Origin: an uncultured Lentibacter sp.
GTDB taxonomy: Bacteria; Pseudomonadota; Alphaproteobacteria; Rhodobacterales; Rhodobacteraceae
Direction: 5' to 3'
DNA: 64,000 nucleotides
NCBI RefSeq assembly: GCF_937123735.1
Contig: NZ_CAKZKL010000011.1
Location: 1,833 to 65,832, forward strand
This document shows positions 6,196 through 37,931 of this stretch, piece after piece. The position numbers were made by a program, and so were the translations under genes. The notes beneath the pieces are model-generated. The model worked only from the letters and a program-made list of their open reading frames with translations. It searched no databases and had not been told where the DNA came from. Every line of letters begins with the position of its first letter. Position 1 is the first letter of the stretch.

Positions 6196-6227
6196 GTTGC
6201 ACCTTGCTGGTTCACAGCGTTAACAAA

Positions 6228-6242
6228 GCAAGTTGCGTGCCA
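6228..6242 (-). promoter_or_regulatory. sigma54 (-24/-12) promoter for fliOPQR-flhB
   Basis: The minus strand reads TGGCACGCAACTTGC(T). This matches TGGCAC-N5-TTGC exactly. It lies about 33 nt upstream of the fliO ATG. Confidence 0.8.
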
Positions 6243-10093: not shown

Positions 10094-10132
10094 AACAAGC
10101 TTTCTTGGGTTTCAAAATTCGAACTTAATCTA

Positions 10133-10147
10133 GCAATAAAAATGCCA
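10133..10147 (-). promoter_or_regulatory. sigma54 promoter for fliKLMN
   Basis: The minus strand reads TGGCATTTTTATTGC(T), with correct GG-N10-GC spacing. It lies about 40 nt upstream of the fliK ATG. Confidence 0.75.
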
Positions 10148-16185: not shown

Positions 16186-17340
16186 TCAACTGCTCAAGCG
16201 GCTCAGCGCCGGATGTGGGTTTGTCGGGCTGGGCATGACATGGGGAATTCGTGCGCCATCAATGATGATGTCTTCTGCTTGAATCATCCCATCAACTTGC
16301 AAAACAAGAGCGCGTTGGATCACGTTTTCAAGCTCTCTGACGTTCCCGGGCCATTCATGGCTGATTAGCAAAGAGCGCGCCTCAGCTGTTATCCAAGGAA
16401 TTGCTTCAATCGACGAGGCATGCTTACGCAAGAGCCCAATAGCGAGTGGCAAAATATCAAGCGGGCGCGCGCTCAAAGCTTGCGTGCTCATTGGGAAGAC
16501 GTTCAAACGATAAAAGAGATCTTCACGGAAGCGGTTTTCCTGAATTTCAAGCCGCATATCGCGGTTGGTTGTCGCTAAGACGCGCACATCAACTTCAATC
16601 TCCGCCTGTGCACCAAGCGGCGTCACCTTCCGTTCTTGTAAAACCCTTAATAACTTGGATTGCAAACCAAGGGGCATTTCCGAAATTTCGTCGAGCAAAA
16701 GGGTGCCTCTGTCAGCAGCCCTGAAAATGCCTTTGTTGGCAACAGACGCACCTGTGAACGCCCCTTTCTCGTGGCCAAAAAGCACCGCTTCCAGCATGTT
16801 TTCAGGGATAGCCGCACAGTTGATAGCAACAAAAGGTGCTTCGGCCCGATCAGACCGATCATGGATATAGCGCGCAAGAACCTCTTTCCCCGTCCCGGTT
16901 GGTCCGTTCACAAATACAGTGACGTCAGAGGTTGCGACACGGCTGGCCAAAGATAACATTTGCGAGGTCGCTGGATCAGCGGCTACCATCTTTGAGATAT
17001 CCGCAGCCAGTATCTCGGCTGCAACGGTGAGCTCGAAACCCTCATCTTCAGGTAAGCTCACGCGCAACAGCTTGCCTCCAAGTGAACTTACAATGGAAAA
17101 CTTGTCTGCACCAAATTTGAAAACAACGACACACTTTGGTTTTTGAGCTCGCGCAATGTTCAGAAGCGCTTGCTGCCCTCCGAGTACCTCTTCATAATCT
17201 GCTGAATATGCCCAAACAGCCCCAACAGAACCTTCAGCTGGAGCCTTTACGACCTCAGCGCTAATTTTCCGAATAGCCACACTGGCACATAACCTTTCGG
17301 CCTGTGGGAATTTGGCAGCTTCAATCAAAATAGAAGTCAT
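16186..17340 (-). CDS. fleT: sigma54-dependent activator lacking a DNA-binding domain (FleT-like)
   Basis: An AAA+ sigma54-interaction domain is present (VNGPTGTGKE, GAFTGA, NVRELEN). It follows a ~135-aa N-terminal domain. The protein ends about 45 aa after NVRELEN with no HTH. It is the first gene of the fliE-J operon, which as I recall matches R. sphaeroides fleT. Confidence 0.8.
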   Translation of the reverse strand: MTSILIEAAKFPQAERLCASVAIRKISAEVVKAPAEGSVGAVWAYSADYEEVLGGQQALLNIARAQKPKCVVVFKFGADKFSIVSSLGGKLLRVSLPEDEGFELTVAAEILAADISKMVAADPATSQMLSLASRVATSDVTVFVNGPTGTGKEVLARYIHDRSDRAEAPFVAINCAAIPENMLEAVLFGHEKGAFTGASVANKGIFRAADRGTLLLDEISEMPLGLQSKLLRVLQERKVTPLGAQAEIEVDVRVLATTNRDMRLEIQENRFREDLFYRLNVFPMSTQALSARPLDILPLAIGLLRKHASSIEAIPWITAEARSLLISHEWPGNVRELENVIQRALVLQVDGMIQAEDIIIDGARIPHVMPSPTNPHPALSRLSS

Positions 17341-18181: not shown

Positions 18182-18197
18182 TGGCACTAAAATTGCA
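18182..18197 (+). promoter_or_regulatory. sigma54 promoter
   Basis: TGGCACTAAAATTGCA matches the consensus exactly. It lies 34 nt upstream of a 56-codon ORF and upstream of fliS. Confidence 0.75.
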
Positions 18198-18907: not shown

Positions 18908-19396
18908 ATGCTTCGTTACTGTCCTATGTGGATTTACTCGGCCGTATGCTCGCTATCTGCCCAGCGTTATCTTTCCGAGAACTTGGGCTTGGAAGCCTAT
19001 GCCGGCAAATACGCAAACGAATTATCTCTTCGATACGCTGATATCAGCAGCGATATGATACTGGACACATCTGAAAGTTATCTACGCCACCTGATGGACG
19101 CAGAAATCGAAAATGCCTCTGAAGTATTGGACGCGTTTGCTTTTAAACAACTAACCTATGAGGCAAACGGACTTCCGCGCAAAATTAGAAGCTTCTTCTC
19201 TTCAAGTCTCGATGGGCTTAAAGCACCGGAAATAAATATCGATACAGCCGATAAGGAATTCAAACCGTTCATTTACATGTTTCGTGCCAAACCTGAGCTT
19301 GCCCCACCAGCAGGCTGGAATTGGACAAAAATCGAGGATGGTGAATTTCTCCAAGATTTTCCCAACCTAGAGGTATCTTTTCTCGACGGGATCTGA
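18908..19396 (+). CDS. hypothetical protein, 162 aa
   Basis: Good RBS (GGGGAGA). No recognisable motif. It follows fliS, the position where fliT often lies, but it shows no FliT-like features that I can verify. Confidence 0.4.
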   Translation: MLRYCPMWIYSAVCSLSAQRYLSENLGLEAYAGKYANELSLRYADISSDMILDTSESYLRHLMDAEIENASEVLDAFAFKQLTYEANGLPRKIRSFFSSSLDGLKAPEINIDTADKEFKPFIYMFRAKPELAPPAGWNWTKIEDGEFLQDFPNLEVSFLDGI

Positions 19397-19749: not shown

Positions 19750-19867
19750 ATTTAAGGGTAGCAATCCCGCAACTCCAGTTTAGTTGCAGATTATCTAAAG
19801 TAAATTGTAACTTTTCTCCAGTAAATTTTTCTTGCTATCGAATGGCACATCATTGACTGGAGCACTC

Positions 19868-20107
19868 ATGAAGCGTGAAAAACAAAAATCACCGATATGC
19901 CGTCAATGCATGATTATAAGATATTTTATATTTGCCGCTGGCTTGGGTATTCTCAGCATTCCCTTTGCAGGAGAGCGCTTTTCCCCCCTGTCAAACCTCA
20001 CGGCTTGGCATTTTGTTTTTGTCATTTGGGGCATCGGGGTGATTGGGTTTCTTTTGAAGCTGGTGCTTGAAATGCGGCCAACGTCTGAGACTGAAACCGA
20101 CGAATGA
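19868..20107 (+). CDS. small two-TM membrane protein, 79 aa
   Basis: The ATG has a GGAG RBS. Two hydrophobic helices are present (YFIFAAGLGILSIPF; WHFVFVIWGIGVIGFLLKLVL). Confidence 0.4.
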   Translation: MKREKQKSPICRQCMIIRYFIFAAGLGILSIPFAGERFSPLSNLTAWHFVFVIWGIGVIGFLLKLVLEMRPTSETETDE

Positions 20108-20134: not shown

Positions 20135-20950
20135 TCATCGCGTCAACTTTTCAACGAGATCCGAATTGGCCTGAAGAACGCGCGCAGCCCCGCTAAACTG
20201 TTGTTGTGCACGGATCATTACAGTCATTTCTTGAGTAATATCAACGTTTGACCCCTCAAGAGCCCCTGCCTCGATCGACCCAAAGCCGTTCTGACCGCCG
20301 ACCCCAATGAGCGGTTCTCCGGATTGACCAGACTGTGCGAAACGCGCGGACCCAACATTGCGCAAACCACCCAAGTTTGAGAAAGTGGCCAGTGCCAGTT
20401 GGCCAACCTCTTCAACATTTTTATTTCCATAAGTCACGGTCACAACACCGTCTGCACTCACTTCAAGTTGGCTCATGGTATCGCCTTCCTCAGACTTAAA
20501 AGGAACCTGAATCGTGGTTAGCGTAGCCCCAGCAGCTCCATCTTCCGATGCAACCACGCCACGCACAAATGAGCCATCTGACGCGCGCAAAAATCCGTCT
20601 TTGTCTAATGACATCTCTCCATTTCGCGTGAACAAATTTGAATCTGAAACCTCGCCTGCGGCATCAGGCGCGGAGGTGACGAACATGCCTTGGCCAACCA
20701 ACGCCAGGTTAAGGGCGCCTGCGCGGTTTACAATTGTGCCTTGGCCATCGTTGCGCCTTGTGTCTGATATTGAGCTACCAAAACCTGTTGTTGTGCGAGC
20801 TACGGTATCAGGTGTTGCAGACCCATAGATATCAGTAAATGACACGTCGCTTTTCTTAAAACCTGTTGAGCCAGAGTTCGCGATATTGTTTGAAACAACC
20901 GCGATTTCATGCATAGCAGTTGCCATTCCCGCCCTGATAATTCCGTACAT
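20135..20950 (-). CDS. minimal flagellar hook/rod-family (FlgE/FlgG-like) protein, 271 aa
   Basis: The N-terminus carries VVSNNIANSGSTGFKK. The C-terminus carries GALEGSNVDITQEMTVMIRAQQQFSGAARVLQ. The middle region is FlgE-like (LALVGQGMFV...FTRNGEMSLDKDGFL). It is a separate gene from flgB, C, E, F and G. Confidence 0.75.
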   Translation of the reverse strand: MYGIIRAGMATAMHEIAVVSNNIANSGSTGFKKSDVSFTDIYGSATPDTVARTTTGFGSSISDTRRNDGQGTIVNRAGALNLALVGQGMFVTSAPDAAGEVSDSNLFTRNGEMSLDKDGFLRASDGSFVRGVVASEDGAAGATLTTIQVPFKSEEGDTMSQLEVSADGVVTVTYGNKNVEEVGQLALATFSNLGGLRNVGSARFAQSGQSGEPLIGVGGQNGFGSIEAGALEGSNVDITQEMTVMIRAQQQFSGAARVLQANSDLVEKLTR

Positions 20951-20985
20951 ATGTGTCTCTCCTTGTTTAGATCTCGCAAGGAAAC

Positions 20986-21001
20986 TGCATAAAGTGTGCC
21001 A
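20986..21001 (-). promoter_or_regulatory. sigma54 promoter for the flgE-like paralogue
   Basis: The minus strand reads TGGCACACTTTATGCA (GG-N10-GC). It lies about 36 nt upstream of the ATG at 20950. Confidence 0.7.
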
Positions 21002-21073
21002 TGTGGAATAAATTGATTATTAGAAATATATTCCGAAAGGAGTTACCCTTTTGATAAAATAAAGCTGATCGTG

Positions 21074-22792
21074 ATGAATATCGACCAAACAACAACAAAG
21101 CTTAAAAATAGCTACATTGTATCGACCTACGCGTCCTCGGCGTTTGGAGCTGTGATCGGGGTTATTGTTTCTATTGCCGCCGCTCTTTTTGTCCATATCG
21201 TTCGCTATTTTAGCGATCAAAACCATTTCTCGGACATAAAAGCCCTTAGCTACGGACCGATCACGCTAAACTTAACCACAGTCTTTTTGATTGCTTGTGC
21301 TGCCGTCGCAATTTTGGTTTTGCGGCGGTTGTTTAATGTCAACCGCTGGCATGGTCCGGCCGATACGATATACGCCGCACATCAAGATCTGGAACCCATC
21401 GATCTCAAAATGGGACTCGCCTCAACCTTGGCTGCACTTGTATCCGCTTGCGGGTCCGCTTCGGTTGGGCAATATGGTCCGCTCGTTCATTTTGGGGCTA
21501 CCCTCGGCCTTGCGCTCAAACAAACATTATTCGTGCCAATGCGCTCCAATGTTGTGATTGGATGTGGTGTCGCTGCTGCAATTTCAGCCGGCTTTGACGC
21601 GCCGATTGCGGGGATCATCTTTGCTCATGAAGCAATCCTGAGGCATTTTTCAGCGCGCGCGATGGCGCCCATAGCAACAAGCGCGATAGTTGCGGCTGCG
21701 ATGGTCAATTATGTTTTCCAACTCCCCAATCCCTTGTCATTGCGCAGCGAGGCCCCGCCCCTCCTTGAGGCTCTCTTGCCAGTCATTTTGTCAGCTGTGA
21801 TATTCGGGTTTGTCGCGATACTGTTCATGCAGAGCTTGCGGTTTTTCATGTCCCTGAACAAACGGCTCGCGTTGCCGGCTTACAAGTCGCTCTTTATTGC
21901 CTCGCTTTGCGTTGTTCTCGTCGGGGCCTACATTCCCGAGACGCTTGGGCTCGGCACCCAGACACTGGGCGAGCTACTAAACGTTCCTCCAACGTTGGGA
22001 TTTGCTTTGGCGCTCTTTGCGGGCAAGATATTCCTCACCAGCATTTGCCTTGGGTTTGGCTTCTTTGGTGGAGTCTTTTCACCTGCACTCTTTGTCGGTG
22101 CATCAGCAGGAGCAGTGCTCGGAAGCGCTTTTGTTTCTACTTCCCAAGGAGACCTAAGCACAGCATTAACCCTTGCAGGAATGGCCTCGGTTGCGGCCTG
22201 CGTGGTTGGCGCGCCTTTGGCGACAGTCTTTATTGTCCTTGAGTTGACCCTCTCATACGAGTTTACTTTGATTACACTCTTGGCTGTTGTGGTCAGCCAA
22301 GTGGTTTCTTCCAATATTTTTGGCCATTCGTTTTTTGACCGTCAACTGATTGACCGCGGAATAGATCTGCGCCAGGGCCGCAGCCAATTGTTGCTCACGC
22401 AAACAAAAATTGGCGCCTATGCAACATCAGATTTTGTCACAAGCCGATCAGAGCAATCTGTCAAACAGCTCCTCGACGCTCTCAGACGAAAAAACCATAC
22501 TGAGGCATATTTTGTTTCAGATAGCGGTTTGTTTGTAGGCAAGCTCACAATCAATCAATTGTTGACAGCACCGCCAGATGCGGCTGTTGATGATCTGGTT
22601 GACCATGCCCCTCTGTTGTTGGAGGCAAATACATCCTTGCAACAGAGCATCGAAAAAGCCTCGTCATTTGTTGGCGAAAGCATCCCCGTGGTTTCATCTG
22701 AAACTGGTCATTTATTGGGTGTCGTCACCGAAGCCGATCTATTTTCCGCTTACCTTGAAATCCAAGAAACCATCAGAGATGTAGAGCGCTGA
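21074..22792 (+). CDS. ClC-family chloride channel/transporter with a C-terminal CBS pair
   Basis: A polytopic protein with ClC motifs (GSASVGQYGP, GFFGGVFSPALFVGA). The C-terminal ~150 aa is CBS-like. The start could be the GTG at 21071 or the ATG at 21074. Confidence 0.85.
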   Translation: MNIDQTTTKLKNSYIVSTYASSAFGAVIGVIVSIAAALFVHIVRYFSDQNHFSDIKALSYGPITLNLTTVFLIACAAVAILVLRRLFNVNRWHGPADTIYAAHQDLEPIDLKMGLASTLAALVSACGSASVGQYGPLVHFGATLGLALKQTLFVPMRSNVVIGCGVAAAISAGFDAPIAGIIFAHEAILRHFSARAMAPIATSAIVAAAMVNYVFQLPNPLSLRSEAPPLLEALLPVILSAVIFGFVAILFMQSLRFFMSLNKRLALPAYKSLFIASLCVVLVGAYIPETLGLGTQTLGELLNVPPTLGFALALFAGKIFLTSICLGFGFFGGVFSPALFVGASAGAVLGSAFVSTSQGDLSTALTLAGMASVAACVVGAPLATVFIVLELTLSYEFTLITLLAVVVSQVVSSNIFGHSFFDRQLIDRGIDLRQGRSQLLLTQTKIGAYATSDFVTSRSEQSVKQLLDALRRKNHTEAYFVSDSGLFVGKLTINQLLTAPPDAAVDDLVDHAPLLLEANTSLQQSIEKASSFVGESIPVVSSETGHLLGVVTEADLFSAYLEIQETIRDVER

Positions 22793-22831
22793 GCGCCCCG
22801 CGTTCTCGCTCAGATTAAAAGACAGTTCAGA

Positions 22832-24121
22832 TCACCTGATCAGGTCAAAGAGGCTTTGTTGACCCACATTTGCAAAGACCTGGCGCAACGCATCACGATT
22901 GACCAACAGGCTTTGCAGCTGTGTTACAACAGCCGAAAGATCCGCGTCTTCAATGCCGGATAAAGTTTCCTCAACCATCAGTTCTTGTTGTGCCAGCATG
23001 TCAGATCTCAGTTCCGCAGTCGCAGAAAATGCGCCCACCTGTGCTTGGGTCAACGCCATGTGAGAAATAACTGCATCAAGGCCTGACAGGGATACATCAA
23101 GGGCACCATCTTTATCAACCAGCACCACGGATGAGCCTACGGCCTCGCCACTTACAATCTCCTGTACCAGGATCTGGTTGTCCGGCTTTGATTGCGCCCC
23201 CCGCACGGCACCTGTCTCAAACTGTGCAATACGAAATGGACGCTTTGACAAATCGCTCAGAACTATGCCGTTCCCGTCTTCAGAGGCTTCGGCAACCACA
23301 CCTGTGTGTGCGCTTTCGGCGTTGATTGCCTCGATCATTGGCTGCATGGCCCCAGAAACCATAGTTACGGTGATATCAGCGCTGCCAGTAGCCCCCTCAA
23401 TTCTGAGTGACTGCGGTTCAGGCTGCCGCCCAATGTCAAATGACAGCAGCGCGCCTTCGGCAGAGGTCACATTTACGTCGGTTTGATAGTGCGCTGACGT
23501 CTCCAAAGCTGTTTCAAACTCTCGCACAATATCAAAGACTGATTTTGGCCCCTGCGCTGTTTGGATGCGCATAAAGCTCGATGCCCCGTCTATGCCCGTT
23601 GAAATGCTGAGCGATGCCGAGACCGGCAGGCTGTGCATCCCATCATCTCCAGAATAAGACACCGAGCCGTCCAAGCCAATTTCAAAGGGGTCAGAATTGG
23701 TCATGTATCCACCAAACAATGCCTGACCCTGTGCATCTCGGCTGTTGCCCAAACCCACGAGGAACCGCTTATGTTCGGCAACCTCTTTTTGAATAGACAG
23801 CCGGTCTTGTGCATTCAGGGTGTCATTTGTAGCCTGAATCGCCAGTTCCTTGATACGGATCATAACGTTTTGAACCTGCCCAAGCGCAACATCCGTTTCT
23901 GACAAGCGATTTTCAATACGGGTCATATTCCCACGGTAGCGCGACAGACCAGCCTGCAAGTCTTTTGCAGCAGACAGCTTGGACATTTCGATAGGGTCGA
24001 TAGACGGCTTGATCGGCTTCTTCCCCGAGGCAACCTGCTCCTGAAGCCCGTTCAACTGGTCAGACAATCGCCCCAAATTGGCAATCGTTTGCTCATTAAA
24101 CATTTTGGTGCTGATGGTCAT
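22832..24121 (-). CDS. flgL: hook-filament junction protein FlgL (HAP3)
   Basis: Flagellin-like N-terminus (MFNEQTIANLGRLSDQLNGLQEQVASGKK) and C-terminus. It sits directly after flgK. Confidence 0.88.
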   Translation of the reverse strand: MTISTKMFNEQTIANLGRLSDQLNGLQEQVASGKKPIKPSIDPIEMSKLSAAKDLQAGLSRYRGNMTRIENRLSETDVALGQVQNVMIRIKELAIQATNDTLNAQDRLSIQKEVAEHKRFLVGLGNSRDAQGQALFGGYMTNSDPFEIGLDGSVSYSGDDGMHSLPVSASLSISTGIDGASSFMRIQTAQGPKSVFDIVREFETALETSAHYQTDVNVTSAEGALLSFDIGRQPEPQSLRIEGATGSADITVTMVSGAMQPMIEAINAESAHTGVVAEASEDGNGIVLSDLSKRPFRIAQFETGAVRGAQSKPDNQILVQEIVSGEAVGSSVVLVDKDGALDVSLSGLDAVISHMALTQAQVGAFSATAELRSDMLAQQELMVEETLSGIEDADLSAVVTQLQSLLVNRDALRQVFANVGQQSLFDLIR

Positions 24122-24136: not shown

Positions 24137-27100
24137 TCAAATTGCGTTCATCAAGGTATCAAGAAGCTCTTTTGCCGTGCTCAAGACACGCGCGAGAGCC
24201 TGGTAGGCTTGTTGCTGCTCCAACAGCCGTGCGGCTTCGGTGTCCAGGTTCACACCTGAGAATTCTGACTCCATCTCAGCAGCAGCATCTCGCACAGCCA
24301 AGGACGATGCCGCCGCAATTGTGCTGGCCTGCACCTTCGCGCCTGCATCAGTGATCAAGACACTAAAACTTTGCGAAAACCCGCCTTTGCCACTCTGTAA
24401 ATCAGTTGTTTGCAAACCAAGCAGTTTGGCCACATTGCGGCCGTCTCCTTCGCCGGCAGTATTGGGTGCAATACTAAAGCGATCGCCCGTTTTCACCGCA
24501 CCGCTTATCACCAAGTCTACACCAGCCACGGAGAAGCGACCCGTTTCATCCAGATACCGGCTTGCGATGGAGTGCCCGCTTTCCCGGTCCAAAATTTCAA
24601 TACGTCCAGACGCACCATCTTCAACAACGATATCAAGTGGCCGCTGCAACCCAACTTCAATATCAGACGTATCTCTCTCAAATTGAGCCGAAAGCCTGCG
24701 CGCCCCATCCCCGGTCAGAATAACAATCAGCTCTTCAGGCGGCAGGTTTTTCAAAGAAATACGTTCAGAAATCAAACCACCAGACGTCGCCTGCACATCA
24801 ATCGCACTTTGGTCTAGCGCGCTTAAACGCAAGCCATCTTGATTGACCAAGATTTGATTTGGAGAGGTCACAAAGCCAAGCGCCCGGCCTCCTTCACTCG
24901 GAAGGATACGCAAGGCCCCAGCTGTTCCAGCCTCCGTGCGGCGAATGGTGATCTGAACTTCAGTGTCGGAAACGGAGTTCACAGACAGTGTTGTGCCCAA
25001 AGGCAAATCTGGGTTTTGTGCGATCTGAACAACGTCATTCTCGTCAAGAGTCAGCGAGATATCGTATTGTGTGTCATCAATCTCAAGCGACAGAACGTGA
25101 GGCTGGCTGCTCAACGTGTTTTGCAAAAACGAACGGCCCGTCAGAACTTCTAATTGCTGGTCCACTTCAAGGCCAAATGCGGTCATGGAAGCGGTGCTCG
25201 CATCGGACGAAACTCTCAAGGTCTGCCCGGTTTCAAAGCCTTGCGACGCACTGACAACAAGCTTGAAACTGTCGTCAAAACCAGCCGTTAACCGCTCCGC
25301 TTCAGGGCCCTCAACAACAACTTCGCCATCCACCATGCGCAGAACAAAACTTTGCTCTCCTAACTCTAAAGTTATGGTTTCGCCATCGCTGGGCAAACCA
25401 TCAACATCAGAAAAACTGCGCCCGCTCAACACTGGCACAGGCGCCAAAGACCGCAGATCAGTTGCAAGCGCCTGAGCAATCGCCTGGGAGCTCAACTCAT
25501 CCAGATCCGAGCTGAGAACCGAGGCAGATAAGCGCGCGCTTGATCCGTCCGTTTCAAGTGAAACCGAAAACGATGCCGCCGCGGCGCTTGCAAAGCTCCC
25601 ATCGGGGCGGGCTTCGTTCCCGTCGATCCCTTCGATTGCCCTAAAGCTCAACTGCTGCCAACTGCCCGCAGGATCAGCTGCGCGGCTGATGAAGCCCTGA
25701 TGAAGCGGATCGGCGGTGCTCGTTTTGGTGCCTCCAGCGCCACTCACCGTAAAGCTGCGCGCGGCAGACAGGCTCACCTCGCCACCAAAGCGCGCAAATT
25801 GATTTGCAGCTGTTCCAAGAAGGACGGGGCTATCGCTTCGCAGCTGGCCTTGCGCCCCAACAGCAAAAGCCTCAAAGCCCTCCCCCTCGACCACGATATC
25901 ACTCAACAAAATATCGGAACCTGCTTCGTTGACCAATACCAGCTGGCCCAAATCAGAGGACAGATGCGCGGATATACCCGTGTTGCTGGTTTGTGCGTTT
26001 ATCAGCTCAACCATGTCACTGAGATCGCCGGCGCGGGCGTAACCTTGGATGGCCACTGGGTCTTTGTTTTCCCCTGTTAGGCCAAAACTGACAATTCCCT
26101 CCGGTATCGCTTGCAACAAGACTCGTGTTTCGGCTTTTGCCCTGATCCCCAAATCTGAACTCAGCGTGTTGACTTGCTCTGCGATATAATCGGCCATAAC
26201 CCCTTGAGGGATCTCAAGTTTGGTCTCTGGATCACTTCCAACGGCAATCGAAAGCGTTTGCGCCGGAGTAGCGACGCTTACCGGAAGAGAACTTCCAGCC
26301 CATACAGGAGGTGCAAACCCTTCCCCCGAAACTTTGAGACCATAGGCCCCACCCGGCGTTGCACGCGAAACCTCTGTTGATTGGAAACCCCCACTGCCCA
26401 CCCCGTTCAAATGTTCAGCCCGATATTCAACCGTCTCTAGAAATCCATTCGCAGGGGTCAGATATCGCATCACCTCGCTGTCGCTGAGCGGCGTTCCGGC
26501 GATTTGACGCCCTTCACGGGTAAACACTTGAATTTGCGAACCGATGTCATTTTTTTGCGAAATGCTGCCTGTAACGGTTTCATCGGCTTGCAAGACGGCC
26601 GCGCTCAGTCCGGCAATTCCACTTGCAATCGACAGAACGCCCGCTTCACCACTTGCAAACAAGCCGAGATCCGCAAAGCTGGCCCCACTTGATGATTGCA
26701 AAATTCCAGCATTGAGCATGTCGGCCAACTCCGACAAGTTGACGTTGCTCTCAGTGCTGCGGCGCTCCGCAAAAGCCGCAGTATCAAACTGGTGGCTCAC
26801 CTCATCAAGCGTCAGGGTTATACTGCTCAAGTTGGCAAATTGGGCGTCGGCCAAAGTAAACGACGCGAGATCTTGCCGCGTGAGCGAGAACAGATCCACC
26901 TCAGATACATCCGCCGGGATAACACCAATAACACCGTCCGAGCGGAACCGTGTTGCCGCCGCAATACCAATGTCGTTGGCGAGCAGCTGCGTGAGCATTG
27001 GAAGGTCGCTCGGCGCCTGTGCTGAAAATGCCTCAAACGCCAAATTCGCAGAGCCTGTGTTGCTGACATCGGAGGTTGTAAGAAGTGGGCCGGCCGCTGC

Positions 27101-28387
27101 GAACTCTTGCGGACGGGTCAACAAGAACTGCATATTTGCAGCCTTTCCACGCGACAATTCCAGCGCGAACGTGTCACCATCAGCCGGCTGTCCCACCAAC
27201 GACACATTTAGACCCGCAAAAACAAATCCGTTTTGCCCCTGTGCGACCACATCACCTGCCTCATCGCGGCCTTGCCACATTGAGTTGGCAGAATTGTAAA
27301 CGATTTCTAGCTCCACATCTTCTTCTGGCAAGGGCCCTACAGACGAGACATAGCCGGTTACCGACCCGAGGTTTGTCGCAGAGGGTTCAAGCATAAAGCT
27401 ATCCAAACCGAACAGCGCCCCTCCCGTTTTTCCGTCAAGGCTGACACCTTCCGAATGCACAGAGTTCAGCTCGCTGGCCACTTTGCGTGCAAGAGCATCC
27501 AATTCTCGGGAAGTTTGCGAGACCGTCTCATATGCTGCGATCAAACCCGCTAATCCACCAGAGGTCATTTGCTGGGTCTGCAAGGCGCCCCCCCCGGCAC
27601 CGATATACACATCGATCTGGCTGTCTTGCGCGATAACCGAGATTTGGCTGGCAGTTTTTCCCTCCAAGAGCACGGGGCCACTCCCAGTTGCTCCGAGTGT
27701 CAAAGTTGTATCACCGCGCACGTTGTATCGGGCCGAAACGCCTGCGTAGTCGGCAATCGCAGCAATAGACTTGTCACGTTGATCCATCAGGGCGTTGGAG
27801 GCCTTGCCACTCCCTCCGGCAGAAATAAGGCGCGCTTGGATATCCGCCAAACCAGCCAACTCGGTGTTTAAAGAGCCCACCATGTTGTCAACTTCGCTGG
27901 TGATTGCCGATTGAAAAGTTTGCAATGAACCAGAGAGCGACTGAAACGCTGATGCCAAAGAACGCCCCTGCTCCAGCGCGACAACGCGCCCAGAGAGATC
28001 ACCTGGCGCTTGGGCGATACTGCTGATGCCGTTGAAGAACTCGTTTATTGAAAATGTCAGATCATAGTCTTCTGGCAGCAGGATGCTCTCAAGTGTCGTA
28101 AGCGCTTCTTTATACGACTCTGCTCTTTCGTAATCAGATGAGGTGTCTCGCGCGCGTGAGGCGATAAAGCTGTCAAAGGCTCGCGACACATCCGACACAC
28201 GCACACCAAGACCAGCTTGGTCCGATATACTCAGTATTCCGCCTTGTGTTGCTGAAACCTCTTCCATGGAAGCTTCTCGGCGGCGATACCCTTCAGTGTT
28301 GAGATTGGCAATATTTTGGCCCGTGACACTAAGGGCTTTTCGATAGGCCTGAATCCCGCTGCTACCGATGTCAAACAAGCCAGCCAT
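24137..28387 (-). CDS. flgK: hook-filament junction protein FlgK (HAP1), giant 1416-aa form
   Basis: The N-terminus (GLFDIGSSGIQAYRKALSVTGQNIANLNTEGYRRR) and C-terminus (VNLDTEAARLLEQQQAYQALARVLSTAKELLDTLMN) are canonical FlgK. About 1000 aa of extra central sequence lies between them. Confidence 0.9.
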   Translation of the reverse strand: MAGLFDIGSSGIQAYRKALSVTGQNIANLNTEGYRRREASMEEVSATQGGILSISDQAGLGVRVSDVSRAFDSFIASRARDTSSDYERAESYKEALTTLESILLPEDYDLTFSINEFFNGISSIAQAPGDLSGRVVALEQGRSLASAFQSLSGSLQTFQSAITSEVDNMVGSLNTELAGLADIQARLISAGGSGKASNALMDQRDKSIAAIADYAGVSARYNVRGDTTLTLGATGSGPVLLEGKTASQISVIAQDSQIDVYIGAGGGALQTQQMTSGGLAGLIAAYETVSQTSRELDALARKVASELNSVHSEGVSLDGKTGGALFGLDSFMLEPSATNLGSVTGYVSSVGPLPEEDVELEIVYNSANSMWQGRDEAGDVVAQGQNGFVFAGLNVSLVGQPADGDTFALELSRGKAANMQFLLTRPQEFAAAGPLLTTSDVSNTGSANLAFEAFSAQAPSDLPMLTQLLANDIGIAAATRFRSDGVIGVIPADVSEVDLFSLTRQDLASFTLADAQFANLSSITLTLDEVSHQFDTAAFAERRSTESNVNLSELADMLNAGILQSSSGASFADLGLFASGEAGVLSIASGIAGLSAAVLQADETVTGSISQKNDIGSQIQVFTREGRQIAGTPLSDSEVMRYLTPANGFLETVEYRAEHLNGVGSGGFQSTEVSRATPGGAYGLKVSGEGFAPPVWAGSSLPVSVATPAQTLSIAVGSDPETKLEIPQGVMADYIAEQVNTLSSDLGIRAKAETRVLLQAIPEGIVSFGLTGENKDPVAIQGYARAGDLSDMVELINAQTSNTGISAHLSSDLGQLVLVNEAGSDILLSDIVVEGEGFEAFAVGAQGQLRSDSPVLLGTAANQFARFGGEVSLSAARSFTVSGAGGTKTSTADPLHQGFISRAADPAGSWQQLSFRAIEGIDGNEARPDGSFASAAAASFSVSLETDGSSARLSASVLSSDLDELSSQAIAQALATDLRSLAPVPVLSGRSFSDVDGLPSDGETITLELGEQSFVLRMVDGEVVVEGPEAERLTAGFDDSFKLVVSASQGFETGQTLRVSSDASTASMTAFGLEVDQQLEVLTGRSFLQNTLSSQPHVLSLEIDDTQYDISLTLDENDVVQIAQNPDLPLGTTLSVNSVSDTEVQITIRRTEAGTAGALRILPSEGGRALGFVTSPNQILVNQDGLRLSALDQSAIDVQATSGGLISERISLKNLPPEELIVILTGDGARRLSAQFERDTSDIEVGLQRPLDIVVEDGASGRIEILDRESGHSIASRYLDETGRFSVAGVDLVISGAVKTGDRFSIAPNTAGEGDGRNVAKLLGLQTTDLQSGKGGFSQSFSVLITDAGAKVQASTIAAASSLAVRDAAAEMESEFSGVNLDTEAARLLEQQQAYQALARVLSTAKELLDTLMNAI

Positions 28388-30590: not shown

Positions 30591-31379
30591 TTACAGATTA
30601 TTTGAGAGATAGCGCATCATCTCATCGACCGATGAAATCGACTTCGAGCTTACCTCATATGCACGTTGCGTTTCGATCATATCCACAAGCTGCTGAACAA
30701 CGTTGACGTTTGAGCCTTCCAAATATCCCTGGACAAGTTTGCCAAAGCCCCCGTTCAGGGGGGCTCCCTCAATGGGCGCTCCGCTTGCTGGCGTTTCAAC
30801 TGCAAATGTTTCACCGATTGGCTGCAAGCCCCGCGGGTTTGCAAAGTTGGCCAAGGTCAATTGCCCCACTTCTTGCGGCGCGGTCTCTCCTGCCAACATG
30901 ACAGACACAATTCCGTCTGAGGAAATATTGATTTCGCTTACATTGTCTGGAATTTGAATCTCAGGCTGAACGACATATCCGCTTGAAGTGGTCAATGTCC
31001 CCTCTCCATTGCGCGAGAAGGTGCCGTTGCGTGTGTAGCCCATGCGCCCGTCCGGCATCAAAACTTGAAAGAAACCCGACCCGTCAATGGCCAAATCAAG
31101 CGAATTGTCCGTGCTCACAAGGCCACCTTGGGAATACAGCTTCTGGGTGTTTACCAAGTTCACACCGGTCCCGACAGTGGAGGCCGAGGTCAGCATATTG
31201 CCGTCCGCAGTTTGCGCGCCCCCTGAGCGGGTGACCTGGTACAGCAAGCTTTCGAAATTCACACGATCACGCTTGAAGCCTGTTGTGTTCACGTTTGCCA
31301 GATTGTTGGCAATCACTTGCATCTTGGTTTGTTGTGCGTTGAGGCCTGTCTTGGCCACATGCATTGCATTTGAAGACAT
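30591..31379 (-). CDS. flgG: distal rod protein FlgG
   Basis: A 262-aa protein with MHVAKTGLNAQQTKMQVIANNLANVNTTGFKRDR at the N-terminus and LEGSNVNVVQQLVDMIETQRAYE at the C-terminus. Confidence 0.96.
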   Translation of the reverse strand: MSSNAMHVAKTGLNAQQTKMQVIANNLANVNTTGFKRDRVNFESLLYQVTRSGGAQTADGNMLTSASTVGTGVNLVNTQKLYSQGGLVSTDNSLDLAIDGSGFFQVLMPDGRMGYTRNGTFSRNGEGTLTTSSGYVVQPEIQIPDNVSEINISSDGIVSVMLAGETAPQEVGQLTLANFANPRGLQPIGETFAVETPASGAPIEGAPLNGGFGKLVQGYLEGSNVNVVQQLVDMIETQRAYEVSSKSISSVDEMMRYLSNNL

Positions 31380-31414: not shown

Positions 31415-31430
31415 TGCAAGAGCTGTGCCA
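31415..31430 (-). promoter_or_regulatory. internal sigma54 promoter upstream of flgG
   Basis: The minus strand reads TGGCACAGCTCTTGCA, an exact consensus match. It lies in the 59-nt flgF-flgG spacer, about 36 nt before the flgG ATG. Confidence 0.75.
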
Positions 31431-31438
31431 ACCAAGCG

Positions 31439-32197
31439 TCAGTTTTGCGGCAACCGCATCAACTCTGCACCGCCGCGATCAATATCTTCTGCGAGCTTGA
31501 TAAATTTGACCCCCATTTCAAACTGGCGCTGGGTTTCAATAGAGTGAATCAGTTCTGATACCGTATCAACGTTGGAAGCCTCCAAGACACCTTGAGCGAC
31601 CTTGACTTGTTGGTCAGGTGCGGGAACCGAGCCGTCAGGGCGGCGAATTTGGCCATCCAACCCTTTGCTCAATCGCTCATCTGTTGCAGACGTTGTGCCC
31701 AAAAAATCGACCTGAAGAAACTGGCCAGCCGGCGCGTCTAGTGGGGTCACCGAAATTTCACCACTTTCTGAAAGCTTGAACTCAGCAAACGGCGGCAGCT
31801 CTATCGGTTCCAGGTTTTCGTTTAAGATGCGCTCTTGCGCGCCGTTTACCAAAAATCCGTCTGCATCAATTGACAGATCACCCCGCCGAGACAACGCAAT
31901 CTCTCCATTGAGAGGCTGCACATACAAGTAACCGTCTGACACCACCGCGATGTCCATTTCAGAACCGAGTTGGCGCAAGGCCCCCTGCCGTGTCGAAAAC
32001 CCCGCCTTCCCAGTTTCCAAATTCATGGCCCGCGCAGAGGCTTGATCCATAGATTGGATGAAGGCTGTGCCGCCATCATTGGGCAAGTCTTTACGAAAGC
32101 CCGGAATGTCGACACTGCTCAGATTGTTCGCCGTTGTTGAGCGCACATCATGCAGGTTTTTCAACGTGTTCAACGCTGTATGTATCATCCTGTCCAT
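31439..32197 (-). CDS. flgF: proximal rod protein FlgF
   Basis: A 252-aa rod-family protein with matching N- and C-termini (LEASNVDTVSELIHSIETQRQFE). It sits between flgE and flgG. Confidence 0.9.
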   Translation of the reverse strand: MDRMIHTALNTLKNLHDVRSTTANNLSSVDIPGFRKDLPNDGGTAFIQSMDQASARAMNLETGKAGFSTRQGALRQLGSEMDIAVVSDGYLYVQPLNGEIALSRRGDLSIDADGFLVNGAQERILNENLEPIELPPFAEFKLSESGEISVTPLDAPAGQFLQVDFLGTTSATDERLSKGLDGQIRRPDGSVPAPDQQVKVAQGVLEASNVDTVSELIHSIETQRQFEMGVKFIKLAEDIDRGGAELMRLPQN

Positions 32198-32220: not shown

Positions 32221-35200
32221 TTACATACGGATATTGATGATGGTCTGGGTGAGGCTCGTGGTTGTTTCAATCGCTTTTGCAGAGGCCTGATAATTTCGCT
32301 GTGCCGTGATCAAGTTAACCAGTTCCTCCGTGATATCGACGTTTGAGCGCTCGAGTGAACCCGACAGAATATTCCCGAAGCCCTCTGCGCCAGCCTCACC
32401 AACCTGAGGTGTGCCTGAAACCGCAGTTTCAACGTAGGTCGCGTTTCCAATTTGTTTCAAACCGTTTTGGTTGTTGAAGTTCGCCACAACAATCTTGCCA
32501 AGAGGATTGTTTTGCCCATTTGTATAATTTGCACGGATGGTGCCGGAACTGTCAATTTCAAGGCCATCCAAGCGCCCAGAAGTGAAACCATCCTGCTCGA
32601 CCGACAGCACCGAAAATGGCTGCGCAAACTGTGTTGACGCCGCGTAGTCAATATCAAGTGAAATCGAAAAGCCTTCTGCTTGTTGCTCATAGCGAACATT
32701 GTTTTTGGGGCTGATGAGCTTACCTGTTTTGTCAAAGGTCAGCTCGCCTTCATCAATGTAGAGCGGGAAATAGCCATCCACCATATCTTCTGGAGGGGTG
32801 GTAACAACTGTGCCCTCAGGGTCGACATAGAGCGCGACGCCTTCAGCGTTTGTTGCCTGCACCAGATTGAATATTTTCGGGACCGAACCAACACCCAGCG
32901 GAACATCATCCAAACCCAGGCGAGAGGCGCCTTTGACTTTGATTGTCGATCCGTCGCCCGTTGTCCCCGTCTGGAAGACAAAGCCATTGTCGGCCGTCGA
33001 ATAGCGCACCGTCACGCCACCAACAGTTTGCCCTGTTACTGGGTCTGAAATCTGGTTGATTCTTTCCTCGAGTGCGGTGGCCAAAGTGGTGCCAACATAG
33101 TTGCCCGGCGGCACATCAATGATACCAGCAATGCCATTTACAGAAACATTGAAGCGGTTTTCGCCGTTGTTGGATGTCAGGCGGAACACTTCAGTCAAGT
33201 CGCCCTGGGCTGCGCGGCCAGTCGCAATTGCAGGTTCAGCCGCAAGACCGCTGCCTTCTTGGAAGGTAAAGTCCTGCTTGGACGCACCAAAGCCAAACAG
33301 TGCGTTTTCACCCCCGCCAATAATCCGGGAATCCAGCGCGATCGTCTCACTTTGGTCAGCACTCCCATCCCCGCTGGCCGGAATAATTCTGCGACCAATC
33401 TGGATATTGGAAGATTTCTGATTTGTGCTGACGCCAAGCGCCCCGTTGGCATCAATGCTTTCGCCTGTCGTGCCACTCGCAACAGTAAACGATTTCGTAT
33501 CGCCATTGTAACTGACGGACACACCATACCGTTTGTCGTTCAGCTGGATTTCTTCACCGTCTGCAATAAACGGCTCGGTAGACAAGATCTCTCCCCCGCG
33601 AATGAGAACTGTCTCAGCATTGCCCCCCGCAGGGATACCAAGCCCGTTTGTCCCATCGGCATCCGCAGATCCGTAAACAGTGAAGGCGTTAAAGTTACTG
33701 CCTGTGCCCGTTCCCAAAACCGTGCGATCAACATTGAACTGCAAGCGCTGATTGGTTTCATCATAGGATACTTTGATGGGAGGATTGTTTTCATCAACCC
33801 AGGCCACTTTGCTGGTTGTTGCGTTTGTGACGGTCTGAGCGCTCACACTCCCCAAATCAGTGTTCACATTGGCCGCCGTGATAACAATCTGATCGCTGCC
33901 ATTTTTGGAGAACACAACACCTGCGGCCGAGGTTGCTGTCAGCGCATTCAACCCGGTTACCACCGCGTCAATATCTGCAAAGTTGGCATCTTGAAAATCG
34001 GCGGTGACAGTTTTGTCTCCAATCGTGAAGCGCGTGAACTTGTTGTTCAATTCGGCAAAGCCGAGGGCTGAAAAGCTATGCACTTCGGCAACGGCTGTGT
34101 CCGCGGCTGTTGTTTCAGTCGCTGCAATTGCGGCCCCTGAAACAGGCAGGCCAAGCGCAGTCAAGGAAGCGCCGCTTGTGTCGATCATCGTCTGACCGAA
34201 GGCGATTGCCTCTTCCACGGAAAGCTCACCCGAGTTGCGTTGCGCTGCTGTGCCAATTTCGCGCATCACAATTCGCTTGGAATTGAACGTTTCAAAGGCA
34301 CCATCAACAGTTGCTTTGGCCCCTTCAAAGAAGGCCTCCAGATCTTGTGAGGGCTCATAAAGAAGCGACACATCGGTGCCATCCAGTTCAAAGCCAGATT
34401 CTGGCAAGTTCAGGCCCGAGGTGTCGATCCGCAACATTCGGTAGCCTGCATCCATGGCTACATTTTCAAAGATACGCAGCTCGCGCCCATTCAGGTGATC
34501 TTGAAAATCTGTGTTCGTAGAGGCGCCCACCAGACGGATAGAGGAGGATGTGGGTGCTCCAAATTCAGTTGGAACATAGACTGTCAAGGTGTTTTGCGTG
34601 TTGTCGTATACAACCGACTTACCACCAGAGCTTACGAGTGCACCCTCAGCATCAACCGATTTCAGCTCAGTGTTCTTATCATAAACAGAAAGACTGGGGC
34701 GCTTGCCATAGTATGAGTAGGCTAGGAAACGCTCTTGCGAAACCGTGCCGCTGTCGGTGTCTTGGGTGTGCGTAATGGTGACCACTTCAGGCTCAGGATG
34801 TGGTTCAGCCATCTCGCTGCCAATACTACGCACAAACAGCCGCCCTTCAACGCCGAGCGTTGCAGCCCCGGTGCCAAGAGTGCCATCGCTGTCATAGATA
34901 TAGTCGTTCATTTCATCTACGAGGCGGGTTTGCGTATGCGCCAAAAACTCTTCGCGCGTGAAATCCGGTGATGCGCCCTCAACGTCCATGCCCATCAGAT
35001 CTGAAACAGATGTGGGCTGAAGAAGGTCTATCTCGATTTTCTTGTCACCCAGACCTTGCAAAGAGCCGTCGGGCGCCAATTTGAAGAGATCAATCGTCAA
35101 CCGATCGTCGATATTCTGGAAAATTTGAATTTTCTTGTCATCACCATAGGCTTCGTTGATGGCCCGTTCCACTTCCGCTGCCAGCTGTTCAGCGTTGTAT

Positions 35201-36297
35201 TTTCCCGGGCGCAGATCAATGGAGACCGGTGCATCGCTGTCATCCACGTTCACGGTAAGAAAATCTTTACCCCAGAACAAATCACTGTCGGCATTGCCGG
35301 CTTCTCGAGTGGCCTTGAACAGCAGCGGATCCGTGACAATCTCTACGAGCTTGTCGCCTTCCTCGCCAAAATCAAATGCGCTTTGCTCGCCTTGAAGGGT
35401 GGCAGGTTGTGACTCGACCTGCTGGTTGAGGTCATCCAGCTTGTAAAGCGGAGAGCCCTTTCCTTCGAGGAAGTAGTTGTCATCTGGAACAGAGGTCGTT
35501 TGGTTCCCGAAACGGTCAATGAATATTTGCTTACCCGTATCATCCACCGCATTCACCAAGTCGGGTTCAATGATGGTATCATTGATGACCAGCCGGGTAT
35601 CATATTTGTTGGTTGGGTCTTCCGCAGAAGCATTTTGTGTCTTGATAAAATAGATTGTCGCGATCGTCGGGTTACCAAGGTCATCGAAGATCGTAATTGA
35701 CGTGGAGTTGGTGTAACTGTCCGCATCATTCGGATCAAACCTGTAACCATCGGCAAACTGATCCAGATCGGTGACAACCGGCGCATCCGCCGGCACGTTC
35801 ACACCAAGGTCAATTTTACCTGTCGCCTTGGGTTCTCCGGATGTCACCGGAAGCTGCAAAGGCACCGCGCTGTCTAGATCTTTCGCCGTGACAGACCCAT
35901 CTAGGTTGACAGGGTAGGTCATCAGATACTGACCGGCACTATCAACAACGTATCGGTCATTATCGACGTTAAATGACCCGTTCCTGGTGTAAACTGTCTG
36001 AGTAGACGTGAGCGACGGCTTCAACGCAAAGAAACCTTGCCCCGAAATGGCCAAATCAAGAGCATTCAGAGACGAGGCAATGTTGCCTTGGGTGAACTGC
36101 TGCTTGATCCCCTTCAAGATGGTGCCGGAACCGATTGAGGACGATGCGTTTTGCAACGGGGACGTCGCAAAGATATCACCAAATTCCGCGCGGCTTCTCT
36201 TAAAACCGGTCGTGCCGACGTTGGCAATATTGTTTGATGTGGCTGAAATATCGGCCTGCGCACCATTAAGGCCGGTCAATGCGGTATAAAATGACAT
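32221..36297 (-). CDS. flgE: flagellar hook protein FlgE, giant 1358-aa form
   Basis: The N-terminus (MSFYTALTGLNGAQADISATSNNIANVGTTGFKRSR) and C-terminus (LERSNVDITEELVNLITAQRNYQASAKAIETT) are canonical FlgE. It sits between flgD and flgF. A very large central insertion is present. Confidence 0.88.
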   Translation of the reverse strand: MSFYTALTGLNGAQADISATSNNIANVGTTGFKRSRAEFGDIFATSPLQNASSSIGSGTILKGIKQQFTQGNIASSLNALDLAISGQGFFALKPSLTSTQTVYTRNGSFNVDNDRYVVDSAGQYLMTYPVNLDGSVTAKDLDSAVPLQLPVTSGEPKATGKIDLGVNVPADAPVVTDLDQFADGYRFDPNDADSYTNSTSITIFDDLGNPTIATIYFIKTQNASAEDPTNKYDTRLVINDTIIEPDLVNAVDDTGKQIFIDRFGNQTTSVPDDNYFLEGKGSPLYKLDDLNQQVESQPATLQGEQSAFDFGEEGDKLVEIVTDPLLFKATREAGNADSDLFWGKDFLTVNVDDSDAPVSIDLRPGKYNAEQLAAEVERAINEAYGDDKKIQIFQNIDDRLTIDLFKLAPDGSLQGLGDKKIEIDLLQPTSVSDLMGMDVEGASPDFTREEFLAHTQTRLVDEMNDYIYDSDGTLGTGAATLGVEGRLFVRSIGSEMAEPHPEPEVVTITHTQDTDSGTVSQERFLAYSYYGKRPSLSVYDKNTELKSVDAEGALVSSGGKSVVYDNTQNTLTVYVPTEFGAPTSSSIRLVGASTNTDFQDHLNGRELRIFENVAMDAGYRMLRIDTSGLNLPESGFELDGTDVSLLYEPSQDLEAFFEGAKATVDGAFETFNSKRIVMREIGTAAQRNSGELSVEEAIAFGQTMIDTSGASLTALGLPVSGAAIAATETTAADTAVAEVHSFSALGFAELNNKFTRFTIGDKTVTADFQDANFADIDAVVTGLNALTATSAAGVVFSKNGSDQIVITAANVNTDLGSVSAQTVTNATTSKVAWVDENNPPIKVSYDETNQRLQFNVDRTVLGTGTGSNFNAFTVYGSADADGTNGLGIPAGGNAETVLIRGGEILSTEPFIADGEEIQLNDKRYGVSVSYNGDTKSFTVASGTTGESIDANGALGVSTNQKSSNIQIGRRIIPASGDGSADQSETIALDSRIIGGGENALFGFGASKQDFTFQEGSGLAAEPAIATGRAAQGDLTEVFRLTSNNGENRFNVSVNGIAGIIDVPPGNYVGTTLATALEERINQISDPVTGQTVGGVTVRYSTADNGFVFQTGTTGDGSTIKVKGASRLGLDDVPLGVGSVPKIFNLVQATNAEGVALYVDPEGTVVTTPPEDMVDGYFPLYIDEGELTFDKTGKLISPKNNVRYEQQAEGFSISLDIDYAASTQFAQPFSVLSVEQDGFTSGRLDGLEIDSSGTIRANYTNGQNNPLGKIVVANFNNQNGLKQIGNATYVETAVSGTPQVGEAGAEGFGNILSGSLERSNVDITEELVNLITAQRNYQASAKAIETTTSLTQTIINIRM

Positions 36298-37915: not shown

Positions 37916-37931
37916 TGGAGCGTTATTTGCA
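37916..37931 (+). promoter_or_regulatory. sigma54 promoter for the divergent orf185-orf116 pair
   Basis: The plus strand reads TGGAGCGTTATTTGCA (GG-N10-GC). It lies 36 nt upstream of the ATG at 37967. Its -12 element shares the palindrome TTGCAA (37927-37932) with the flgB promoter. Confidence 0.6.

Follow-up and report, generated by a model that had tools for sequence, protein, structure and literature searches.

In the textbook flagellum the rod consists of four proteins plus FliE, and the hook of one, FlgE. Hook proteins can be small: the FlgE of Bacillus subtilis, the only one of its system, has ~264 amino acids (aa) and no D2 domain, and is thus similar in size to the protein described here. 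In Epsilonproteobacteria a second FlgE is encoded (FlgE2 in Helicobacter pylori, Cj0043 in Campylobacter), for which no function has, to our knowledge, been established. Here, we describe a gene, called mini-FlgE below, which encodes a 271-aa FlgE-like protein within a 64,000-nucleotide stretch from an uncultured Lentibacter sp. (Rhodobacteraceae; contig NZ_CAKZKL010000011.1). This whole stretch, referred to as the window, holds a complete polar-type flagellar cluster, in which mini-FlgE stands beside a canonical FlgE of 1358 aa. None of the nearest precedents combines a minimal FlgE paralogue, a sigma-54 promoter of its own and a giant canonical FlgE.

The first of these precedents is found in Sphingomonas paeninsulae, where a 276-aa homologue is the sole FlgE and occupies the flgBCD-E-FG slot. 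Mini-FlgE shares its minimal architecture and ~34% identity with this D2-less FlgE, but is an additional paralogue with its own promoter, beside a giant FlgE. Since the Sphingomonas protein is the only FlgE, it is plausible that a hook-like tube can be built without D2. The second FlgE of Epsilonproteobacteria likewise comes in addition to the main hook gene, but it is large (~550-620 aa), carries outer domains and belongs to an unrelated lineage; the structure in PDB entry 5npy, which we take to be H. pylori FlgE2, matches mini-FlgE weakly and partially (Foldseek E value 1e-3; phmmer 1e-15 on the termini).

As a whole, the cluster resembles the Fla1 system of Cereibacter (Rhodobacter) sphaeroides, with which it shares fleQ, fleT-fliEFGHIJ, flhA-flhF-flhG-fliA, flgT, sigma-54 promoters and a giant FlgK. 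However, the C. sphaeroides FlgE has 423 aa beside a FlgK of 1363 aa (PMC7277832), and the Fla1 review mentions no mini-FlgE. Because a giant FlgK is found there with a 423-aa FlgE, the giant FlgE appears to be a feature of marine fla3-type lineages, fla3-type being the Rhodobacterales name for clusters of the C. sphaeroides Fla1 type. A preliminary description of this locus had called the system fla1-type, which is right as to the kind of cluster but not as to its name in the Rhodobacterales scheme. It had also named no described function for a second mini-hook protein in such systems; we likewise found none in the literature searched, in the Fla1 and Rhodobacterales reviews or in the curated family libraries, and no mini-FlgE-like gene is listed in the Fla1 review or in the supplements of the Rhodobacterales paper.

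The gene and the signals in front of it lie as follows.

20135..20950, minus strand: mini-FlgE coding sequence, 271 aa with an ATG start, from the open reading frame (ORF) and its translation
20957..20964, minus strand: Shine-Dalgarno sequence AAGGAGAG of mini-FlgE, 6 nucleotides (nt) before the ATG, read from the sequence
20986..21001, minus strand: sigma-54 type -24/-12 element TGGCACACTTTATGCA, found by pattern scan, with GG and GC at the correct spacing

The translated ORF carries LALVGQGMFV and FTRNGEMSLDKDGFL. The Shine-Dalgarno sequence is strong, and GGAG-type motifs occur at the same place in most orthologous loci. In 13 moderately diverged orthologue pairs the ratio of non-synonymous to synonymous substitution rates (dN/dS) is 0.02-0.14. 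Mini-FlgE is a real gene under strong purifying selection.

The protein belongs to the FlgE/F/G superfamily. Three Pfam models match it above their cutoffs, PF00460 Flg_bb_rod with 21.3 bits (cutoff 20.7), PF22692 LlgE_F_G_D1 with 35.8 (27) and PF06429 Flg_bbr_C with 45.9 (23), and so does the NCBIfam subfamily model TIGR03506 FlgEFG_subfam with 182.7 bits (cutoff 70.25). The equivalog models, on the other hand, all fail. All ~10 FlgE models score below their cutoffs, the best of them, NF004238, reaching 164.5 bits against 400, and the same holds for TIGR02488 (FlgG; 133.4 bits against 252.75) and TIGR02490 (FlgF; 117.5 bits against 178.5). No PF07559 (D2 domain) match was found in the Pfam scan of mini-FlgE. 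The protein therefore stands outside the FlgE, FlgG and FlgF equivalog families as now defined, and none of the curated families is specific to it.

The AlphaFold2 model, computed from a 48-sequence alignment (predicted local distance difference test 89.7; predicted template-modelling score 0.83), predicts two D0 helices (residues 2-24 and 238-270), an all-beta D1 domain and a hairpin at ~128-146. This hairpin, of ~20 residues, takes the place of D2 in the model. The best Foldseek match is the D0-Dc-D1 core of the Vibrio polar-hook FlgE (8z5u_D; template-modelling (TM) scores 0.90/0.91), followed by FlgG chains at ~0.82/0.89 and FlgF at 0.71; a phmmer search of PDB gave the same ranking, with Vibrio FlgE on top (E value 1e-26). 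Thus ORF, Pfam, NCBIfam and structure model agree with the preliminary description of a 271-aa protein having rod/hook-family terminal helices and a FlgE-like core. In orthologue alignments both D0 helices and the D1 core, which form the polymerisation surfaces, are fully conserved.

The members of the superfamily differ in the length of two segments. In a family-wide alignment the Dc segment has 49 residues in the mini-FlgE family (range 47-49, n=69), 48 in FlgE, 59 in FlgG and 47 in FlgF, while the D2 site holds 37 residues in mini-FlgE (28-41 in its family), 14 in FlgG, 17 in FlgF and more than 119 in FlgE. Net charge and isoelectric point (pI) give no separation, as mini-FlgE, FlgG and FlgF are all at ~pI 4.6. 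Compared with the FlgE of Salmonella and Vibrio (PDB 6jzt, 8z5u, 9yee), mini-FlgE has the same D0-Dc-D1 core, a Dc free of the FlgG-specific sequence (GSS) and the same FxDxY/F type of export motif; FlgE is its nearest clade and provides its best PDB sequence matches. It differs from FlgE by the missing D2, by scores below every equivalog cutoff and by a position outside the flgD-flgE-flgF slot. With FlgG it shares the size (~260-270 aa) and the D0-Dc-D1-only architecture, but it lacks the ~10-18-residue GSS in Dc and has ~20 extra residues at the D2 site. Within the superfamily, mini-FlgE would work most like FlgE.

The window itself offers the relevant comparisons, since it encodes the other hook and rod proteins separately.

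32221..36297, minus strand: canonical flgE, 1358 aa, in the flgD-flgE-flgF slot; NCBIfam FlgE models match its N- and C-terminal cores
30591-31379, minus strand: flgG, matched by TIGR02488 with 361.7 bits (cutoff 252.75)
31439-32197, minus strand: flgF, for which the best model, NF009280, gives 186 bits, below the 210 cutoff; no FlgF model passed
37489-37875: flgB, alongside flgC and flgD
24137-28387: flgK, 1416 aa
22832-24121: flgL, at the end of the flg operon

The assignment of flgF also rests on synteny and on a FlgF clade with 100% bootstrap support. As had been described, the rod/hook set (flgB, C, E, F, G) is full and mini-FlgE comes in addition to it, and a single locus encodes both a 1358-aa and a 271-aa hook-type protein, both ORFs being confirmed. 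The window FlgE and FlgK (1416 aa) are ~3 times the usual size, with ~950-1000 residues between their conserved terminal cores; in FlgE, ~950 residues are inserted at the D2 site. In BLASTP comparisons mini-FlgE is 31% identical to the N-terminus and 29% to the C-terminus of the window FlgE, the Dc region being ungapped. It is 30% identical over its full length to the window FlgG, which has ~10 extra Dc residues, and 23% identical (39 bits) to the window FlgF.

A neighbour-joining tree of 122 non-redundant sequences (mini-FlgE orthologues, FlgE cores, FlgG, FlgF and short representatives from a 1.8-billion-protein library) placed the family on the FlgE side. The FlgF and FlgG clades each had 100% bootstrap support with the mini-FlgE family outside both, and FlgG was monophyletic in 100/100 replicates. 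Together with its short relatives, the family excluded all long FlgE and all FlgG in 186 of the 200 replicates; when rooted on FlgF, it joined FlgE first in 186/200 and FlgG first in 1/200. Mean distances from mini-FlgE are 1.40-1.45 to FlgE, 1.6 to FlgG and 2.3 to FlgF, against 1.37-1.39 between FlgE and FlgG. From the tree and these distances, the mini-FlgE family diverged on the FlgE side long ago and did not arise by a recent duplication of the resident FlgE.

Orthology to FlgG or FlgF, and with it to an already characterised rod protein, was rejected: the curated cutoffs failed, each clade stands apart with 100% support, and the window encodes both genes at other positions, so that mini-FlgE replaces neither of them.

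The missing Dc insert bears on the mechanics of the subunit. In Salmonella, the GSS makes the rod rigid, and its insertion into FlgE straightens and stiffens the hook (PMC5399456). The window FlgG carries a GSS-like insert, YQVTRSGGAQTADGNMLT, after FESLL, whereas mini-FlgE reads GSATPDTV there, as FlgE does in type, and a homologue of the GSS is absent from its Dc. YQVTRSGGAQTADGNMLT is the counterpart of the Salmonella GSS. As mini-FlgE lacks both this rigidity insert and outer domains, a polymer of it would be a thin and flexible segment.

A further feature points to the stage at which the protein would be exported. Mini-FlgE contains an FxxxPhi motif (FTDIY, residues 38-42), which we take to be the FlhB gate-recognition motif of early substrates; its F38 is invariant in the orthologue alignment (A3) and at least 90% conserved in a wider one (A2). 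The motif stands at the same place in the window FlgB, FlgC, FlgD, FlgE, FlgF and FlgG, and is absent there in FlgK, FlgL and FliD. Mini-FlgE is very probably a structural axial subunit that would be exported early and polymerise.

The sigma-54 element of mini-FlgE reads TGGCAC-N5-ATGCA and ends 35 nt before the ATG. A search for TGGCAC-N5-TTGCW with at most one mismatch gave 12 occurrences in the window, versus 4.7 +/- 2.2 in shuffled sequence, and elements of the same type precede several other units.

6227-6242: upstream of the fliP-containing operon
10132-10147: upstream of fliK
18182-18197: upstream of fliS
31415-31430: upstream of flgG
37928-37943: upstream of flgB

An equivalent element (pattern TGG[CT]A[CT]-N5-N[TC]GC[AT]) is present 41-75 nt before the mini-FlgE start codon in 63 of 68 related loci, independently of the gene order, and in the intergenic alignment of the window with Planktomarina the GG and GC are invariant and the flanks have diverged. 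The sigma-54 promoter that the preliminary description had assigned to the gene is thereby confirmed at 20986-21001 and conserved beyond it. Given its presence in 63/68 loci, mini-FlgE has retained a separate promoter in nearly every case, including where no more than 60-110 nt separate it from flgL.

Two activators of the appropriate kind are encoded in the window.

49043-50188: FleQ-like activator
16186-17340: FleT-like activator

In C. sphaeroides, the FleQ/FleT hierarchy governs the sigma-54 class of basal-body and hook genes (PMC7277832). By analogy, the elements found before several units suggest that the whole cluster may be under a FleQ/FleT-RpoN hierarchy like that of Fla1, and transcription of mini-FlgE would then depend on RpoN and FleQ/FleT. 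In HTCC2083 (L015 10001-13128) and in L016-L022, L036 and L077, mini-FlgE is followed on the same strand by an ORF of ~228-250 aa, flhG and fliA; in the HTCC2083 clade, the mini-FlgE promoter may therefore also drive fliA (sigma-28).

Homologue searches returned hundreds of mini-FlgE orthologues of 254-292 aa. Their named sources include Planktomarina temperata, Tateyamaria, metagenome-assembled genomes (MAGs) of Paracoccaceae and Rhodobacteraceae, Plastorhodobacter daqingensis, 'Rhodobacter sp. BACL10' and SAR116-like MAGs. A scan with family-specific peptide patterns, using one genome per GTDB species, found 68 loci, and overall ~70 Rhodobacterales and SAR116 genomes with a cluster of the fla3-type carry the gene; the patterns miss P0131 of Plastorhodobacter, a divergent Paracoccaceae member. 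Among the carriers in the scan are Nereida ignava (77% identity), Sulfitobacter and Pseudosulfitobacter MAGs, Planktomarina, HIMB11, HTCC2083, Planktotalea and Thalassobacter, as well as Yoonia, Loktanella, Roseovarius, Marivita, Octadecabacter, Ascidiaceihabitans and Puniceispirillum/SAR116. Cereibacter sphaeroides is not in the scan list, which is uninformative as the same patterns also miss P0131; a word-indexed search seeded with P0131 returned few relatives and no Cereibacter.

Among the carriers are marine heterotrophs that rank with the most abundant (the Planktomarina/RCA cluster, HIMB11, Nereida, Planktotalea, Octadecabacter, SAR116), and several carriers are in culture. The labels given to the orthologues are inconsistent, which is an annotation problem in itself: pipelines name the family FlgE, FlgG, 'flagellar hook basal-body protein' or hypothetical, and those of JGI often choose 'FlgG'. 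Short contigs with mini-FlgE (L060, L067, L070, L027) were also seen in MAGs labelled Flavobacteriaceae, Candidatus Microthrix, Methanobacteriota archaeon and Gammaproteobacteria. These most likely reflect binning contamination and not the true distribution.

In a tblastn synteny map, mini-FlgE is co-directional with flgL and immediately 3' of it in most loci, which gives the order flgE-F-G-H-I-(J)-K-L-mini. A ClC gene intervenes between the two in the window, Planktomarina and Nereida; an SLT gene is also called in this interval in Planktomarina (L001) and in the MAG contigs L003 and L004, and an unassigned gap of ~870 bases separates flgL from ClC in Nereida (L008). Other arrangements exist: fliA and flgB flank mini-FlgE in HIMB11-like and Paracoccaceae loci, and in SAR116 it is divergent from fliA. 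The gene forms a separate unit in all 70+ loci, and in the window the 1358-aa FlgE fills the flgD-flgF slot.

The position of mini-FlgE in the window has to be corrected. The preliminary description had it encoded alone, 11 kb from the flg operon. The figure of 11 kb is the distance to flgE only; mini-FlgE lies 1.9 kb from the 3' end of flgL, with one opposite-strand ClC gene in between. The gene does look monocistronic in the window, where orf91 is convergent and the ClC gene divergent, and neither a sigma-70-like promoter nor an intrinsic terminator was detected around it. However, this isolation is a local accident, as the gene directly follows flgL in most relatives.

Cultured carriers are scored as fla3-type in a Rhodobacterales census, and in Nereida, Planktomarina, HTCC2083, HIMB11 and O. 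arcticus the fla3-type cluster is the sole flagellar cluster (PMC12363192 Table S1). A relic of a second flagellar system was rejected on this account, these five carriers having the fla3-type only and the gene being embedded in the cluster with a conserved promoter.

The preliminary description had proposed to look for co-occurrence with a giant FlgE. FlgE is giant (1250-1465 aa) in 8/8 genomes where both genes are visible.

Window: 1358 aa
HIMB11 (L011): 1465 aa
L012: 1372 aa
L013: 1261 aa
L014: 1258 aa
Octadecabacter arcticus plasmid: 1410 aa
Plastorhodobacter: 1250 aa
L076: 1336 aa

The 1358-aa FlgE is thus presumed to be the partner of mini-FlgE in the window. The roles put forward in the preliminary description (a proximal hook, an adaptor, or compensation for the bulky FlgE) are hypotheses, and the support found for them is this co-occurrence.

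What could such a pair be for? We propose that mini-FlgE would be an old FlgE-derived paralogue, reduced to the tube-forming D0-Dc-D1 core, and would serve as a sixth rod/hook-class axial protein of the Cereibacter-Fla1-like (fla3-type) polar flagellum. Its transcription would start at its own sigma-54 promoter, alongside that of the other basal-body and hook genes and in the FleQ/FleT class if C. sphaeroides is a guide. The flagellar type III apparatus would then export it as an early substrate of the rod/hook type, and it would polymerise on the helical lattice common to FlgG and FlgE. The product would be a thin section of the axial structure, bendable and hook-like, most likely seated at the hook base, in the rod-hook transition near the L-ring and outer membrane, beneath the thick hook made of the 1358-aa FlgE. 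This account, a thin flexible hook-like segment at the rod-hook transition, is the one we favour, albeit tentatively and with less than even confidence.

The proximal-hook or neck location is put forward with similar reserve. The hook base is favoured because the protein is an early-type substrate, is FlgE-like, has a small variable protrusion and is paired with a FlgE carrying ~950 extra residues per subunit. A place inside the LP-ring bushing is improbable, as the D2-site segment varies in length (28-41 residues, against 14 in FlgG). It is possible, if somewhat doubtful, that the hook is in two parts, mini-FlgE making a thin, bare and flexible neck at the cell surface and the 1250-1465-aa FlgE a thick, decorated and probably stiffer segment above.

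If mini-FlgE is a structural segment, the rod-hook architecture is more modular than thought, and the family offers a natural experiment on the purpose of the FlgE outer domains and on the tuning of hook mechanics. If the hook is in two parts, it would be the first segmented hook with a dedicated subunit for each segment, a composite universal joint in which the point of bending or buckling is fixed at a defined spot. Such a joint would be relevant to small, fast, singly flagellated marine bacteria and their run-reverse-flick swimming.

Several observations weigh against a neck at the hook base. A different, gamma-like cluster encodes a 1164-aa FlgE with no mini-FlgE within +/-10 kb, so bulky hooks need not always have a mini-FlgE nearby, and we know of no requirement for one in the large hooks of the Campylobacter type. 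The gene order after flgK-flgL in most genomes fits a distal role equally well, and nothing in the sequence accounts for an enforced order from FlgG through mini-FlgE to FlgE. We also sought the physical neighbour of mini-FlgE by rate covariation (mirror tree) over 21 taxa. The method recovered known pairs (FlgF-FlgG 0.67, FlgE-FlgG 0.54, FlgF-FlgI 0.63), but the top partner of mini-FlgE depended on the background model, being FlgH with a linear one (0.61) and the FlgE core with a quadratic one (0.51), and other partners came up within clades.

The first of the alternatives is a mixed or alternative hook, in which mini-FlgE would be built in together with the giant FlgE over the full length of the hook, or would take its place in certain conditions, the separate promoter setting the ratio and so tuning thickness, stiffness or surface exposure. 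The two proteins have the same core lattice domains, the FlgE-type Dc and the export motif, the dedicated and conserved promoter permits independent dosage, and the Sphingomonas case indicates that FlgE without D2 can suffice for a complete hook. In the covariation analysis, moreover, the FlgE core alone gave consistently positive, though weak, values with mini-FlgE. However, the proteins are ~30% identical and come from long-separate lineages, which argues for distinct lattice positions, and random gaps in the sheath of outer domains bring no obvious benefit. We consider a mixed hook rather unlikely.

Alternatively, mini-FlgE could be a distal adaptor, inserted as a layer where the giant-FlgE hook ends and the giant 1416-aa FlgK begins. 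This would suit the place of the gene immediately 3' of flgK-flgL on the same strand in most genomes, FlgK being giant in every locus examined, and the covariation with FlgL was modestly positive in some analyses. Nevertheless, the FxxxPhi motif is placed as in rod and hook proteins and not as in FlgK, FlgL or FliD, and addition after completion of the hook, before the export switch, needs an extra ordering mechanism. In addition, C. sphaeroides has a giant FlgK of its own, and no extra junction protein is described there (PMC7277832). An adaptor of this kind seems distinctly unlikely.

A third alternative makes of mini-FlgE a fifth rod protein, a distal-rod extension comparable to Bacillus FlhO/FlhP, which would span additional envelope structures such as a FlgT/FlgP H-ring or disk. 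The FlgG-like size and D0-Dc-D1-only architecture (TM 0.82; 30% identity over the full length) lend themselves to this, as do the FlgT-like protein of the cluster, the LPP20/FlgP-like proteins encoded in relatives and a sigma-54 promoter like that of rod genes. On the other side, mini-FlgE is without the GSS insert that makes FlgG rigid and groups with FlgE, not with FlgG, and its variable protruding hairpin at the D2 site, missing in FlgG, would be awkward in the close-fitting LP ring. We regard this as improbable.

Finally, a non-structural role, as a secreted or cytoplasmic regulator, as a decoy competing for FlgD, FliK or the export gate, or as a functionless relic, is highly improbable. 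It would find a parallel in the second FlgE paralogues of Epsilonproteobacteria, whose roles are likewise unclear, but is at odds with the strong purifying selection, with the fully conserved polymerisation surfaces of the D0 helices and D1 core, and with a length, a promoter and a place in the cluster that Rhodobacterales and SAR116 have in common.

The remainder of the cluster is that of a complete polar flagellum. Besides the genes already listed, the window encodes flgH and flgI, a fleT-like gene followed by fliF-G-H-I-J and fliK, fliP, fliR and flhB, flhA-flhF-flhG-fliA, as well as flgT, flgA, a fleQ-like activator, fliD and a MotB-like gene. The fliL and fliM genes were assigned by their position in the fliF-J/fliK run alone. 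No flagellin gene was found among the window ORFs that were scanned, and the ORF adjoining fliD is of another kind. The other genes around mini-FlgE and this ORF are as follows.

18908-19396, plus strand: conserved gene of 162 aa between fliS and mini-FlgE, no Pfam match
19832-20107, plus strand: orf91, a 91-aa predicted membrane protein between fliS and mini-FlgE, no Pfam match
21071-22792, plus strand: ClC-type chloride channel/transporter gene with CBS domains, between mini-FlgE and flgL
51897-53120, minus strand: 407-aa ORF adjoining fliD, of MotB/OmpA type (52% identity to an Octadecabacter gene; also matches L082), not a flagellin

The 162-aa gene follows fliS in the clade of the window and, more weakly, in Octadecabacter, and convergence of the 91-aa gene with mini-FlgE is restricted to the clade of the window, Planktomarina and Nereida. 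An SLT-domain gene (SltF-like flagellar lytic transglycosylase) stands right after flgL in Planktomarina (L001 7330-8166), in MAGs (L003 7361-8170) and in strain SB2 (L077 9142-9909); a tblastn search with the Planktomarina protein found no homologue in the 64-kb window, where 22792-22832 leaves no room for one. The ClC gene recurs near flagellar genes, at 8171-9964 in L001 and at 1-236 in L082, there beside fliS in an unrelated giant-FlgE cluster, and on the Octadecabacter arcticus plasmid a CBS-domain gene adjoins fliS (L073 27761-28402).

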